Of a DNA stretch of 22,431 bases, positions 3,975 through 13,147 are shown piece by piece. A program made the position numbers and the translations under genes. The notes beneath the pieces are model-generated. The model had not been told where the DNA came from, did not search any database, and saw only the letters and a list, made by a program, of their open reading frames with translations. The DNA is from a virus (taxonomy: Duplodnaviria > Heunggongvirae > Uroviricota > Caudoviricetes). The stretch covers positions 1-22,431 of the IMG/VR virus record IMGVR_UViG_2529292726_000014. One strand, written 5' to 3'. Positions within the stretch are counted from its first letter, which is position 1. Every line of letters starts with the position of its first letter.

Positions 3975-4517
3975 ATGTACCAGCTAAAGATAACCATCCG
4001 AGACAGCAAACCACCTATATGGCGGCGTGTGCTGGTTCCAGAGCAAATCCCCTTTAGTAAACTTCATGCCGTGATCCAGTTAGCTTTTGGCTGGAATGAC
4101 GAACACCTGTATATGTTCGAGAAAGGGCGTAAAGGTGATCCAGGTAGCGAGTATCGCGTATGGGGTGAGGATGAAAGCATGGGTAACGCGGCAATCACGC
4201 CACTATGGGCGGCGCTCCAGAATGAGGGTGACAAGCTGGTTTACACGTATGACTTTGGCGACTGGTGGGATTGCGTCATTGTGCTGGAGAAGCAAACACA
4301 CGATACGAGTAATCAGCCCATTAGCTGCCTGCGTGGGAAAGGCACCACCCCGGCGGAAAACTCAGGCGGCTTGCATGGTTACAATGAATTGCTATTACAG
4401 GCCAGAGAGTCTGATAATCCTGAGCAGGCCGAGATCCACAATTTCCTGATGCTGGATATTGAACGCCGGGTTTACGACCTGAGCCGCATCAACGACAGAT
4501 TGCAGGCTATTAACTGA
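3975..4517 (+). CDS. pRiA4b ORF-3-like family protein (180 aa)
   Basis: N-terminal pattern YQLKITIRDSKPPIWRRVLVP...LHAVIQLAFGWNDEHLYMF and later DFGDWW are characteristic of the plasmid pRiA4b ORF-3-like family as I recall it. Confidence 0.6.
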   Translation: MYQLKITIRDSKPPIWRRVLVPEQIPFSKLHAVIQLAFGWNDEHLYMFEKGRKGDPGSEYRVWGEDESMGNAAITPLWAALQNEGDKLVYTYDFGDWWDCVIVLEKQTHDTSNQPISCLRGKGTTPAENSGGLHGYNELLLQARESDNPEQAEIHNFLMLDIERRVYDLSRINDRLQAIN

Positions 4518-5018: not shown

Positions 5019-5718
5019 ATGAACAATAAAAAAGGCAACAAAAACAAAGCTTATCGCCTATGTGTATTGTTCCTATTATCACCGTATCGCCCGAAAGATG
5101 ATGGCTATGTGGCACAGGGGCGCGAGCTAAAACAGCCCGTCATGGCCCCGCTGATTTCTTACTTTCGTGATGCGCGTAAATCACTGGGAATAACGTCAAA
5201 ACAGATAGCGGAAGCCACCGGAAAGAAAAACATGGCTTCGCACTGGTTTGGTACCAGTCAGTGGCAGTTACCGAACGAGGGTGATTACAACAAATTGCAG
5301 GCGTTGTTTGCGCGTGTTGCGGCAGAAAAAACATCAGCGCGGGGAACTGGAAAAACCACACCACCAGCTGGTCAGCACATACAGTGAGCTGAACCGGCAG
5401 TATACGGAATTGCTGAGTGAATATAAAAATTTGCGGCGGTATTTCGGTGTGACGGCGCAGGTTCCGTACACCGATGTCTGGACGCATAAACCGGTGCAGT
5501 ACTATCCAGGGAAACATCCGTGCGAAAAACCGGCAGAAATGCTGCAGCAGATAATCAACGCGAGCAGTCGTCCGGGAGACCTGGTTGCAGATTTTTTTAT
5601 GGGTTCAGGTTCAACGGTAAAAGCGGCGATGGCACTGGGGCGTTGTGCGATTGGTGTTGAGCTGGAGACAGGACGTTTTGAACAGACAGCCAGGGAAGTT
5701 CAGGATTTAATCGTTTGA
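5019..5718 (+). pseudogene. DNA N6-adenine methyltransferase, split by a frameshift (possibly also lacking a canonical DPPY motif)
   Basis: C-terminal half (frame of 5248..5718) has HPCEKPAEMLQQIINASSRPGDLVADFFMGSGSTVKAAMALGRCAIGVELE, i.e. the HP.QKP and F.GSG.T AdoMet-binding motifs of beta-class phage methyltransferases. The N-terminal portion is in a different frame (5019..5387). The frames switch near the A6 run at 5324-5329 or the A5 run at 5351-5355. Confidence 0.55.
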
Positions 5719-5767: not shown

Positions 5768-5843
5768 GGCCCTTTAGCTCAGTGGTGAGAGCGAGCGACT
5801 CATAATCGCCAGGTCGCTGGTTCAAATCCAGCAAGGGCCACCA
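5768..5843 (+). tRNA. tRNA with CAU anticodon, ileX/ileZ-like (tRNA-Ile2, lysidine) rather than Met
   Basis: Manual cloverleaf: acceptor GGCCCTT/AAGGGCC, anticodon loop CTCATAA, T-loop TTCAAAT, 3' CCA encoded. Very similar to E. coli ileX as I recall it. Confidence 0.8.
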
Positions 5844-5844
5844 A

Positions 5845-5921
5845 CCGTCACCAGTTCATCAGGAAAGAGCGTCAACCCTTTAAGTTGAGTGTGCGAGGTT
5901 CGAGTCCCCGGTGGCGGTCCA
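5845..5921 (+). tRNA. Atypical or degenerate tRNA-like gene (anticodon loop CCTTTAA; UUU if canonical, Lys-like)
   Basis: A cloverleaf can be drawn (acceptor CCGTCAC/GTGGCGG with one G-U pair, T-loop TTCGAGT, CCA encoded) but with C8, C33 and one T-stem mismatch. May be a pseudo-tRNA. Confidence 0.4.
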
Positions 5922-5923
5922 GT

Positions 5924-5999
<76 letters not shown>

Positions 6000-6002
6000 T
6001 AT

Positions 6003-6077
<75 letters not shown>

Positions 6078-6416: not shown

Positions 6417-6502
6417 CATATCCTCGCCACACCCGGCGCATATCACATCAAATAACGCCGCGCAAAAGGCATCTGCGGGTGCCTTTGACGGGGTGTTTTT
6501 AC

Positions 6503-6524
6503 GGGCCGCTGGTGGCCCTTTTTT
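6503..6524 (+). terminator. Hairpin terminator immediately upstream of the lysis genes
   Basis: GGGCC / GGCCC stem with GCTGGT loop followed by T6. Preceded by another stem AAAGGCA/TGCCTTT at about 6466-6487. Confidence 0.5.
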
Positions 6525-6543
6525 ATTTACAGGAGAAAAACGT

Positions 6544-6933
6544 ATGTCTGAACCCTTATCCGGTTCCGGCACGGCTGCGGCGCTCGGTGGGGCGACGGTG
6601 TACGGGCTGTTTACCGGAACGGATTTCGGGATTGTGTTTGGTGCGTTCGCCGGGGCGTTATTTGTGGCAACGATGCCGCAGGCGCTTTCAGTCTGGCGTG
6701 TGGTGGCGCATTTTTTGGTGTCGTTTATCGTCGGCGTGCTGGGGGCGCGCGTGCTGTCAGCCTGGATTGCATCAAAAACAGGGTATGACGGTACATCGGC
6801 AGATGCGCTGTGTGCGGTGCTGGTATCGGTGGTGTCGGTGAAGATTCTGTCGTTCATCCACCAGCAGGATATTGCATCGCTGGTGTCCGGTGTGTTCTCC
6901 CGTCTGCGGGGTGGAGGCGGTAATGTTAAGTAA
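6544..6933 (+). CDS. Putative holin (129-aa membrane protein)
   Basis: ATG at 6544 preceded by AGGAG. Glycine-rich product with 2-3 hydrophobic helices, first gene of the lysis cluster. The upstream in-frame ATG at 6493 overlaps the terminator and is rejected. Confidence 0.5.
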   Translation: MSEPLSGSGTAAALGGATVYGLFTGTDFGIVFGAFAGALFVATMPQALSVWRVVAHFLVSFIVGVLGARVLSAWIASKTGYDGTSADALCAVLVSVVSVKILSFIHQQDIASLVSGVFSRLRGGGGNVK

Positions 6934-7198
6934 CCTTCCCGGATTACTGAATGTGGTGTTAAGCACGGTTATCGTGCTGACGCTCTTTTTTTATCGTCGT
7001 GGTGATTCCAGACATAAACCGCTGATGTCGTGGCTGGCCTGGCTGCTGATGCTGCTGTATGCCTTTGCGCCACTTTGTTATCTGTGTGGTCGCTTTCCAC
7101 CCGGTAACTGGCTGGTCGTCCTGATTAACCTGGTGTTCTGCGTGCTGGTGATACGAGCACGCGGGAACGTATCAAAAATCCTTTCATTACGGAGGTGA
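6923..7198 (+). CDS. Second small membrane protein of the lysis cassette (92 aa; holin or antiholin partner)
   Basis: ATG at 6923 preceded by GGAGG, overlapping the previous gene's stop. Two to three TM segments. Confidence 0.5.
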   Translation: MLSNLPGLLNVVLSTVIVLTLFFYRRGDSRHKPLMSWLAWLLMLLYAFAPLCYLCGRFPPGNWLVVLINLVFCVLVIRARGNVSKILSLRR

Positions 7199-7200
7199 GT

Positions 7201-7578
7201 ATGCCCGGTAAATTCAGATTCAGTCGTCGAAGTGAGAAAAATCTGGAGGGCGTCAAACCACAGCTGGTTGCTGTTGTTCGCCGTGCGCTGGAGCTGACGG
7301 AGGTTGACTTCGGTATTACGGAAGGCCTGCGCAGTAAGTATCGCCAGAAGCAGCTGGTCGCGGAAGGGAAAAGCCAGACCATGAACAGCCGCCACCTGAC
7401 CGGTGATGCGGTGGATGTTGTGGCCTACATTGGTAGCCAGGTGTCATGGGACTGGCCTCTGTACGAGAAAATCGCGCAGGCATTTAAGCAGGCTGCCGCA
7501 GAGCTGGGAACTGCCATCGAATGGGGCGGGGACTGGAAAACACTGAAAGACGGGCCTCACTTTCAGTTGAAGCGCTAA
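7201..7578 (+). CDS. Endolysin, peptidase M15 family (L-alanyl-D-glutamate peptidase type)
   Basis: GGAGG then ATG at 7201. Motifs SRHLTGDAVD, DW, and GPHF near the C-terminus resemble zinc-dependent M15 endolysins such as the phage T5 lysin (from memory). Confidence 0.7.
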   Translation: MPGKFRFSRRSEKNLEGVKPQLVAVVRRALELTEVDFGITEGLRSKYRQKQLVAEGKSQTMNSRHLTGDAVDVVAYIGSQVSWDWPLYEKIAQAFKQAAAELGTAIEWGGDWKTLKDGPHFQLKR

Positions 7579-7592
7579 TAACCAGGTGGTTT

Positions 7593-7775
7593 ATGAGCCG
7601 AAAACACTGGACACACAGAATGCCGCGAACGGCGGCGAAATGGGCACTGGTAGCGATACTGGTGCCTTTTTTCCTGGTGGGATGCGTTAGCCTGGATAAG
7701 GTGCGCCAGCTTTTCGATACGGCCTCGCAGGTCTGCGAAATTGTCGAAAGTGCCAGGCAGTGTATGCAGAACTGA
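7593..7775 (+). CDS. Small lipoprotein (60 aa), possible Rz1-like o-spanin with no recognisable i-spanin partner
   Basis: AGGTGG then ATG at 7593. Signal peptide plus lipobox LVGC, last gene of the lysis cluster. Confidence 0.5.
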   Translation: MSRKHWTHRMPRTAAKWALVAILVPFFLVGCVSLDKVRQLFDTASQVCEIVESARQCMQN

Positions 7776-7862
7776 TCGCCTGTAAGAGCAGAATATTGTT
7801 GAATCTAAATTTACTTTGAACAGTGGCCCGGATGGAAAGGGCATCTAAATAGGAGCAGAAAA

Positions 7863-8072
7863 ATGTTAACTGTAAAAGTCATGTCTCAAAATGGTGGGGA
7901 AGAGCTCCATTGCGGGCGTAGCATTGGCTATCATCCAGAGCAGCGGAGTATTGCCGTATCGGGAAAGGATGGGAAAGTCATTCTGAAAGATGGAGATATT
8001 GCTTATGTAATGAACCAAAACGCTCAAATAATATCTGTTTATCGGCCCAATAATAGTCAGAAAAACATTTGA
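7863..8072 (+). CDS. Hypothetical small protein (69 aa) in an AT-rich moron
   Basis: AGGAG 8 nt upstream of ATG. AT-rich codon usage distinct from flanking genes. Confidence 0.45.
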   Translation: MLTVKVMSQNGGEELHCGRSIGYHPEQRSIAVSGKDGKVILKDGDIAYVMNQNAQIISVYRPNNSQKNI

Positions 8073-8195
8073 ATTTCGCAAGTCCAAAGTTCAGTGGTGA
8101 TCGTTATCAACTAATTGAAATAACAAGCTTATGTTTGTGTAATTGGTGATATAGCATGTTAATGCTGAATATCAGCGTCAACATGGAGTTATACA

Positions 8196-8411
8196 ATGGT
8201 TTTTAAACACTATTACGTGAACAAAAATGCTCAGAGCAATGGCGATCATGAGGTGCATGCTGAGGAATGTTCATATCTTCCTGCTGTAGCTAACCGCGAT
8301 TACCTTGGTTACTATAGTGATTGTTCTTCGGCGGTAACAGAGGCAAAGGCCAAAGGATATTCCCGGGTGAATGGTTGCTATTGGTGTGCCAATAAGTGCC
8401 ACACGTCTTAA
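8196..8411 (+). CDS. Hypothetical small cysteine-containing protein (71 aa) in an AT-rich moron
   Basis: GGAG upstream of ATG, five Cys including a C-x2-C pair (CYWC), and a strong terminator immediately downstream. Confidence 0.5.
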   Translation: MVFKHYYVNKNAQSNGDHEVHAEECSYLPAVANRDYLGYYSDCSSAVTEAKAKGYSRVNGCYWCANKCHTS

Positions 8412-8431
8412 TCAATTGTCAATAAACCATA

Positions 8432-8453
8432 AAGGCCGCTCTGCGGCCTTTTT
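8432..8453 (+). terminator. Rho-independent terminator ending the moron
   Basis: GGCCGC / GCGGCC stem with TCT loop followed by T5. Confidence 0.7.
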
Positions 8454-8724
8454 CATGTTAAAAAAGATTGCGGCATTACAGCAGCCCTTCACACTGAGTG
8501 GCTGCGATAATGTGAGAAATAAAAAACCGGCAGGGGAAATCCATTGAAGATTTGCCGGTGGCAAAAAGATGGCCATGCTTTCAACCTTAGTCGCAGGGTT
8601 ACGGAGTGCAACTACGAATGCTGCCGGTATATGGCTGAATGGCGTTTCAATGATGTACGTCATCTTATCTGTAAATGTTAATGATAAAAGCTCTCATTTG
8701 TGCGGGTCCTTCCGGTGGGGTGGC

Positions 8725-8900
8725 CTGCCACGGGGCGGAAGGCGCGCGGGTTTTCGCTATTTATGAAAATTTTCCGGGGAAAATCATGTCGGTACTTCTC
8801 GAACATAACTATTTGTTTTTTCTAATATCGAATCCGTAAAAGGTCCGACATGAAAACGCCTAAAAAAGTCATTTTCGGGCACTTTCATGTCGGACCCTGT
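8725..8900 (+). promoter_or_regulatory. cos site: lambda-like cosN region plus cosB with three Nu1-binding R-site candidates
   Basis: GGGCGGAAGGCGCGCGGGTTTTCGCTATTTATGAAAATTTTCCGG (about 8733-8777) closely matches the lambda cohesive-end region as I recall it. An 11-mer CATGTCGG(T/A)CC occurs at 8785-8795 (direct), 8842-8852 (inverted) and 8886-8896 (direct), just upstream of nu1. Confidence 0.7.
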
Positions 8901-8920: not shown

Positions 8921-9440
8921 ATGAAGGTTAATAAAAAGAAACTTGCCGAAATTTTCAACGTGGATCCGCGAACGATTGAACGCTGGCAGTCTCAGGGACT
9001 CCCTTGCGTCTCCGGAGGGGGTAAGGGCGTTGAATCTGTATTTGATACCTCCATGGCAATTCAGTGGTATGCGCAGAGGGAGGCTGATATCGAAAATGAA
9101 AAACTCCGTAAAGAGGTTGAGGATTACAGGGCTGCCAGTGAGGCAGATCTCCAGCCTGGGACTATTGAGTACGAACGCCATCGACTTACGCGTGCGCAGG
9201 CCGACGCACAGGAGCTGAAGAATGCCAGAGACTCCGCAGAAGTGGTGGAAACCGCATTCTGTACTTTCGTGCTGTCACGGATCGCAGGTGAAATTGCCAG
9301 TATTCTTGACGGGATCCCTCTCTCGGTACAGCGGCGTTTTCCGGAACTGGAAAACCGACATGTTGATTTCCTGAAACGGGATATCATCAAAGCCATGAAC
9401 AAAGCAGCCGCGCTGGATGAACTGATACCGGGGTTGCTGA

Positions 9441-9466
<26 letters not shown>
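8921..9466 (+). CDS. nu1: Terminase small subunit Nu1
   Basis: From about residue 60 the product matches lambda gpNu1 as recalled. The N-terminal DNA-binding domain is divergent. Confidence 0.9.

Positions 9467-13147
<3,681 letters not shown>

Follow-up and report, generated by a model that had tools for sequence, protein, structure and literature searches.

The closest described counterpart of the locus considered here is the moron, an autonomous cargo cassette of lambdoid phages in which a promoter, one or more genes and a factor-independent terminator lie between genes that are contiguous in relatives (PMC3714127). The locus itself is a pair of small genes, referred to as A and B and encoding proteins of 69 and 71 amino acids (aa), in a stretch of 22,431 nucleotides (nt) of a lambda-like (lambdoid) Escherichia coli prophage (IMG/VR record IMGVR_UViG_2529292726_000014, positions 1 to 22,431; hereafter the window). 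An earlier note, made from the sequence alone, had described the pair as a two-gene moron between the lysis cassette and cos. The AT-rich block that holds both genes does share with morons a deviant GC content, an intrinsic terminator, a place in a late-region hot spot and an insertion into a region whose genes adjoin each other, or enclose other DNA, in relatives, and the cassette of gene B, like a moron, moves as a whole from one insertion point or phage type to another. Three of the four defining features are found in the block, the promoter being present as a candidate only. Gene A is different: it has no terminator of its own in the window, and elsewhere it stands directly behind a terminator, as a probable passenger of the late operon. 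The block is made up of a one-gene moron (B) and, beside it, a late accessory gene (A); the two do not form a single moron. The idea of a moron in a hot spot thus stands for B, on the basis of GC content, homology breakpoints and terminator, while the idea of a two-gene unit is not supported, given the independent distributions of A and B. The features of the block are as follows.

7802–8471, no strand assigned: AT-rich mosaic block (40.3% GC), an insert in a cargo hot spot, with both genes and the terminator inside
7851–7855, plus strand: Shine–Dalgarno sequence of gene A, AGGAG, read from the sequence, 7 nt before the ATG at 7863
7863–8072, plus strand: gene A (69 aa, from the list of open reading frames, ORFs), a soluble all-beta protein of phrog_3909
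8073–8195, plus strand: leader or regulatory region of B (34% GC), with blocks shared with the Salmonella prophage L007 and the prophage L145
8115–8143, plus strand: candidate sigma-70 promoter of B, TTGAAA-17 nt-TGTAAT (−35 at 8115–8120, −10 at 8138–8143), picked by eye
8163–8177, plus strand: leader hairpin of B, TGCTGA-ATA-TCAGCG, from an RNAalifold consensus of 22 distinct B leaders
8185–8188, plus strand: Shine–Dalgarno sequence of gene B, GGAG, read from the sequence, 7 nt before the ATG
8196–8411, plus strand: gene B (71 aa, from the ORF list), a Cys5/His2 alpha/beta mini-protein of phrog_4298
8431–8456, plus strand: intrinsic terminator closing the B cassette, a 9-bp stem at 8431–8451 (6 GC) with a TTTTT tail

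At the protein level, A and B both belong to already catalogued PHROG families of unknown function. B shares every invariant residue with phrog_4298 and its bacterial superfamily, a family that is unnamed and has no Pfam or NCBIfam model; the E. coli/Salmonella branch of B differs from the family in being extended by 3 residues at the N terminus and in having one residue inserted in the 51–54 loop. The phrog_3909 family has most of its members in the early/tRNA region of virulent phages or within replication modules, whereas the copy of A in the window lies at the late-lysis end of a prophage. The locus is like type II toxin–antitoxin systems in that its two genes are small, adjacent, co-directional and carried by a mobile element, but it departs from them in lacking obligate co-occurrence, an operon arrangement and any family match, and one lineage has A and B in the reverse order of the other, separated by a terminator. 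Near systems that can be named are the Ada N-terminal Zn(Cys)4 domain (PDB 1eyf, 1u8b), the beta-rich phage inhibitors T4 Dmd and AcrIF9, and the bacterial Rho inhibitor YaeO.

Overall, we read the locus as a hot spot where two unrelated, independently mobile accessory genes lie side by side, and assign this reading a probability of roughly 0.6. The evidence that carries it comes from the distributions of the two genes, each of which is mostly found without the other, contrary to what a two-gene unit would lead one to expect. A tblastn search placed A in 252 deposited phages, whose hosts are Klebsiella, Salmonella, Escherichia, Proteus and their relatives; the deposited phages with B number only 16, not one of them from enterobacteria, and none of these 16 records is among the 252. 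No A was present near B at any of the 80 bacterial-genome B loci that were fetched, and 18 viral B loci of varied GC content are likewise all without A. The E. coli-type prophage L145 carries B (82% identical), with the same leader and a terminator, between an endolysin gene and a lipoprotein gene, and has no A. B is present at only 12 of the 80 best Klebsiella-type A loci; at the remaining 68, a 3′ remnant of B survives together with the B terminator, and these remnants beside A indicate that B has been replaced repeatedly and A retained. Klebsiella prophages also have a terminator hairpin between B and A. Finally, compared with one and the same Salmonella prophage (L007), A is 58% and B 75% identical, which points to different histories for the two genes.

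The features around B suggest that the gene, its leader of approximately 120 nt and its terminator make up a self-contained single-gene moron, from which B would be made in the lysogen by way of its own promoter. The ~120 nt upstream of B are kept between the window, Salmonella and L145 despite the different insertion contexts. Among 22 distinct enterobacterial prophage B leaders (L007, L143 and L150–L199 among the homologues), a consensus hairpin lies ~20–30 nt before the start codon; 97% of its cells are paired, compared with 87.5% in shuffles (0/500), and its covariation score is 0.365 versus 0.174. Its CUG/CAG core is invariant, and 3 of the 6 pairs show compensatory changes. In most of the leaders a TAnnAT element, recognized by eye, precedes the hairpin by ~7 nt, and the two together suggest that the B transcript begins with a 5′ stem-loop. 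The hairpin could be a 5′-terminal stabilizing stem-loop or a control element. Rfam at its gathering thresholds returned only tRNAs and no match for the hairpin; at E ≤ 1 the region gave chance matches only, such as Trp_leader on the terminator. The terminator, which the earlier note had rightly called strong, has a predicted fold energy of −14.3 kcal/mol and follows B in four lineages: the window, Salmonella, L145 and the Klebsiella prophages.

The soluble B protein matches phrog_4298 over its full length (E = 4.5e-32), and its AlphaFold (AF2) model, with strands and helix in the order beta-beta-beta-alpha-beta, has a predicted local distance difference test (pLDDT) value of 92.8. It shows the family motif YYVN..Q.NGD.EVH...C...P...LG....C..A...GC..C...CH. 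Residues Y6, N9, N15, E19, V20, H21, C25, G38, C43, A46, G60, C61, C64, C68 and H69 are invariant even when the Firmicute members are included, and the five cysteines (25, 43, 61, 64 and 68, with the C61-x2-C64 pair that the earlier note had pointed out) and two histidines are invariant across phyla. Seven potential ligands within 70 residues (H21, C25, C43, C61, C64, C68 and H69) most likely hold one or two structural metal ions, with zinc as the default guess, so that the metal-binding fold proposed in the earlier note is plausible on sequence grounds. The ferredoxin motifs of PsaC appeared in the PDB profile search only at E ≥ 3, which is chance level; membership of Ada_Zn_binding was rejected at the level of sequence, with a probability of 0.2% in hhalign, no Ada match at E ≤ 10 in the PDB profile search and no Pfam match; and the deaminase-like HAE...PCxxC, ZAS anti-sigma HxxxCxxC, HNH and cytochrome-c CxxxCH patterns were rejected because the residues are not conserved or an export signal is missing. 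B has no match in Pfam, NCBIfam, PADLOC, BFVD or the PDB sequences.

For gene A, the relevant evidence lies in other prophages. In Salmonella L007 and in Klebsiella L163 and L206, its Shine–Dalgarno sequence is at most ~20 nt behind a terminator; as a terminator directly upstream leaves no room for a promoter, A in the Salmonella and Klebsiella prophages is probably transcribed only within the antiterminated late operon. No promoter candidate was found upstream of A in the window.

Several observations weigh against this picture of a late gene beside an autonomous cassette. In the window there is no terminator before A, and no Q antiterminator gene was seen upstream of it, so that this copy may no longer have a working late operon. 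On the side of B, the promoter picked by eye is weak, its −10 hexamer lacking the conserved A at position 2, and a consensus promoter scan found none for B at its thresholds. The metal ions in B are predicted from residue conservation. Lastly, two enterobacterial prophage lineages have A next to B, in opposite order, which could mean a functional link and not just a shared hot spot.

Such a link is the substance of an alternative in which A and B make up a coupled two-gene accessory system, either a sensor or regulator (B) with an effector (A) or a counter-defence module, each gene also being usable alone. In IMG/VR, A lies directly upstream of B in all 47 close relatives that have both genes (A then B, the ORFs being 123–127 nt apart in E. 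coli and Salmonella and 123 nt apart in the window), and directly downstream of it in 38 of 54 distant, Klebsiella-type B loci (B then A, with ~70 nt between the regions aligned by hidden Markov model, HMM). The adjacency is thus kept although the order is inverted, and both proteins are ~60% diverged between the two lineages, as would fit one old pair. The 38 of 54 is nevertheless discounted as a sign of coupling because of the reciprocal count of 12 in 80, the B remnants, the Klebsiella terminator that separates the genes, the movement of B alone in L145 and the differing identities of A and B. The 68 loci with only a 3′ remnant show A outlasting B, the pairwise divergences of A and B correlate weakly (r = 0.39), and the site is known as a hot spot that also takes up several other cargo genes. 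We therefore regard a coupled system as unlikely, and the simplest reading of the two genes side by side is that A is a frequent post-lysis resident and B a single-gene cassette landing in the same hot spot.

The same comparisons bear on the toxin–antitoxin pair that the earlier note had offered as a possible function. In its favour, A and B are small and co-directional, lie next to each other in a mobile AT-rich block and are neighbours in two prophage lineages. Against this, pairing is not obligate, each gene being far commoner without its partner; the ORFs do not overlap and are 123 nt apart, with a terminator between them in the Klebsiella prophages; and neither A nor B matches any Pfam, NCBIfam or PADLOC model, toxin and antitoxin families included. 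B is ~65% identical across phyla, unlike the components of toxin–antitoxin systems, and on a 6.6-kb ColE1-like Citrobacter plasmid it is lone cargo adjoining a separate, bona fide CopG/RelE pair. The suggestion is not borne out, a toxin–antitoxin pair being extremely unlikely, and we infer that B is not a toxin.

Rather than a phage curiosity, B is a member of a large bacterial family. A profile search gave at least 7,034 clusters (at 90% identity) of standalone proteins of ~68 aa, with homologues at 55–75% identity across phyla, and a scan of one genome per species found B in at least 579 species at 55–72% identity. The phyla include Bacteroidota, Acidobacteriota, Proteobacteria, Actinomycetota, Planctomycetota, Chlamydiota and bacteria of the Candidate Phyla Radiation (CPR); the E. 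coli prophage B is about 65% identical to its counterparts in Bacteroidota or Acidobacteriota. In bacteria the gene is mostly chromosomal, with no lysis genes nearby. The deposited phages that carry it are Streptococcus Javan prophages, Staphylococcus phage 187 (ORF076, reverse), Erysipelothrix SE-1 and a Vibrio inovirus, and in the Javan prophages, phage 187 and the inovirus it is lone and often reverse-oriented. B is also present on 18 plasmids, among them, besides the Citrobacter plasmid, one from Roseivivax on which it adjoins a restriction–modification (RM) system and an HNH nuclease. An identity of ~65% across phyla is unlike that of arms-race proteins and argues for a conserved cellular partner; what B binds would be a nucleic acid or a core protein, rather than a protein of phage or defence origin that evolves fast.

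In Bacteroidota (Flavobacterium, Chryseobacterium, Pedobacter and relatives; loci L019–L095, ~±4 kb), B stands in co-directional gene arrays, which at about 20 of 59 loci follow the genes of a TPR-histidine kinase and a response regulator. They also hold DUF1508/YegP, DUF6804, TerB-like and HSDR_N nuclease-like genes and several Pfam-less families, and the order of the small genes is shuffled between genomes, so that each looks like a cassette array under one two-component system. As a separate observation, Photobacterium damselae (L004 4234–4503, L005 347–616) has a conserved 89-aa ORF 15 nt after its B homologue, which adjoins a prophage lysis module on the opposite strand.

These settings allow B to be considered as a prophage defence or superinfection-exclusion factor, made in the lysogen against other phages or mobile elements. 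The moron architecture, the lysogeny-side or reverse orientation in Firmicute prophages, the RM system and HNH nuclease beside B in Roseivivax, and the variable Bacteroidota arrays with their HSDR_N-domain and TerB-like proteins would all suit such a role. However, B has no PADLOC match and the PADLOC matches of its array neighbours are marginal only; its extreme conservation across phyla is atypical of arms-race proteins; and, with no enzymatic or membrane features, it is too small to act alone except as a binder. A defence function for B is accordingly rated improbable. A tentative suggestion, of low probability, is the view of the B family as a new class of small regulators or protective factors with a universal target, controlled through the leader hairpin and shuttled across phyla by tailed phages, filamentous phages and plasmids as a cassette of promoter, leader, gene and terminator.

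A, by comparison, is a phage-only small beta-sandwich protein confined to phages of Enterobacterales. Most of the deposited phages that carry it are virulent T5-like Demerecviridae, in which A stands among the early-region tRNAs (AKFV33 orf057); it is further found in ~145-kb myoviruses and in the lambdoid phage Fraca, where it comes after Rz. In metagenomic phage contigs it is found, without B, between a DUF2800 nuclease and an SSB/PolA replication module. The protein, annotated as hypothetical protein WP_000958717, matches phrog_3909 over its full length (E = 3.2e-36) and carries the signature MLTVKVM...AYVMN...Y of that family; its AF2 model is all-beta, with seven strands and a pLDDT of 89.8. 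No Pfam, NCBIfam or PADLOC match was found for A, and neither the A nor the B fold has a significant structural match. A forkhead-associated (FHA) domain was rejected, as the PDB profile search gave only the aprataxin FHA at E = 0.045, which is chance level. WD40 was also rejected: phmmer E-values against many-repeat WD40 proteins go down to 3e-26, by score summation over repeats, but this is an artefact without homology support from Pfam or hhalign. Residues 16–45 of A, HCGRSIGYHPEQRSIAVSGKDGKVILKDGD, are similar to one WD40 blade (...SG.DG.v.LwD). A would act in lytic growth by binding or inhibiting an Enterobacterales-specific host factor, and of the inhibitor, anti-defence or host-modulation roles raised in the earlier note, any is possible, mainly for A.

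The place of the pair directly after the lysis genes raises the question of whether A, B or both are accessory lysis proteins, such as timing regulators, antiholin-like or spanin-related proteins. A position right after holin, endolysin and spanin genes recurs in prophages of E. coli, Salmonella and Klebsiella and in Fraca. Yet neither sequence has a hydrophobic or transmembrane segment, a signal peptide or a lipobox, A is also found in T5-like early regions and replication modules, and B is mostly chromosomal, away from lysis genes. We consider a part in lysis very unlikely for either protein.

Both genes are real, as signs of purifying selection, conservation data, PHROG matches and confident predicted folds together show. 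The dN/dS ratio (nonsynonymous over synonymous substitution) of B is 0.12 against the Salmonella relative and 0.09 against L145, and for A the nonsynonymous value (pN) is 0.30 with synonymous sites saturated. The conservation of both extends well beyond this locus, to the 252 phages of A and the at least 579 species of B. The chance that one or both ORFs are accidental frames in AT-rich junk is close to nil: what speaks for it is that B is unannotated in RefSeq, the NCBI annotation pipeline (PGAP) having left it uncalled both in the identical locus of strain E24377A (L001 9497–9712) and in OkiPb01716 (L002), and what speaks against it are the dN/dS of ~0.1, thousands of homologues at 55–75% identity, the PHROG matches and the confident structure predictions. 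B is a small gene that PGAP systematically misses. The exact B sequence is present on at least 1,000 contigs, where GenBank submitters label it a hypothetical protein. A literature search found no paper that mentions phrog_4298, phrog_3909, the UniProt identifiers or the WP accession.

The surroundings of the block, as far as they frame the hot spot, are listed here.

5768–6077: tRNA cluster, upstream of the block
6493–6933: holin (PF16931), upstream of the block
6872–7198: holin (PF05449), upstream of the block
7195–7578: M15 endolysin, upstream of the block
7593–7775, plus strand: 60-aa lipoprotein (phrog_7528, lipobox LVGC), the last gene of the lysis cassette and the left border of the hot spot
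8733–8744, plus strand: 12-nt cohesive-end sequence of cosN, GGGCGGAAGGCG, read from the sequence, downstream of the block
8921–9466: Nu1 (PF07471, E = 3e-90), downstream of cosN
9441–11366: large terminase, downstream of Nu1

The positional and compositional description in the earlier note agrees with these coordinates: two small genes of the sizes it gave, each with its own Shine–Dalgarno sequence, lie in an AT-rich stretch between the lysis cassette, ending with the lipoprotein gene, and cosN. GC content is 0.403 in the block, 0.531 across the whole window, 0.549 in the lysis genes and 0.538 in the terminase genes; in 300-nt windows it goes down to 0.36–0.39. The stretch around GGGCGGAAGGCG otherwise resembles the cos region at the left end of lambda. 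Positions 7700–8560 (861 bases) are 100% identical to several chromosomes of enterotoxigenic E. coli (ETEC), E24377A included. The borders of the block were mapped by megablast against phages and 5,426 complete E. coli genomes. Homology on the left flank ends at ~7801 (phiP27, E. coli W, ETEC1701) and homology on the right flank restarts at ~8472 (cdtI phage, strain 2EC1), which marks the block as a mosaic insertion at a cargo hot spot. The entire block is present in only 44 of the 5,426 genomes. E. coli W has the same holin-holin-M15-lipoprotein cassette, followed at the block position by ParB/Srx and two further genes, and strain 025542-1 has the same lysis cassette followed there by a single 57-aa ORF.

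The Gifsy-like Salmonella prophage L007 (5370–8266) has the same hot spot with a longer string of cargo before Nu1, made up of DUF465, A, B, a second DUF2514 (Rz-like) copy, a reverse DUF4145 gene and two small ORFs. OkiPb01716-type strains have an extra ~134 nt between the terminator and cos (window ~8538; L002 3230–3365), bordered by a 13-nt direct repeat, AATAAAAAACCGG. The lipoprotein at 7593–7775 has three cysteines in its 30-aa mature part and no Rz-like ORF next to it as a partner; it is possibly a spanin component of an unusual kind.

The part of the window that precedes the tRNAs contains an IS66 transposase fragment, a PRiA4_ORF3-like gene and a methylase remnant (67–453, 3975–4517 and 5248–5718). 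Only the C-terminal part of this N6/N4 DNA methylase is in the window; the gene is intact in E24377A. Together with the absence of a visible Q, the IS66 fragment and the truncated methylase suggest that the prophage copy in the window may be defective, its late-gene control region having been lost. In the related E24377A prophage (L001 3893–5397), Q and the methylase gene are separated by a Ser/Thr kinase and a PP2C phosphatase, and directly after Nu1 the prophage breaks off at an Ail/Lom pseudogene and tail-fibre genes.

For the locus, the meaning of these results is that an apparent two-gene module is a hot spot with two separate passengers, which are to be treated separately. A occurs commonly among T5-like and other enterobacterial phages, and this small protein would be a sensible choice for host-takeover or counter-defence screens. 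The family of B is an annotation gap, being large, conserved and mobile yet without a domain model, structure or phenotype, and its conservation within mobile cargo suggests a target common to nearly all bacteria.

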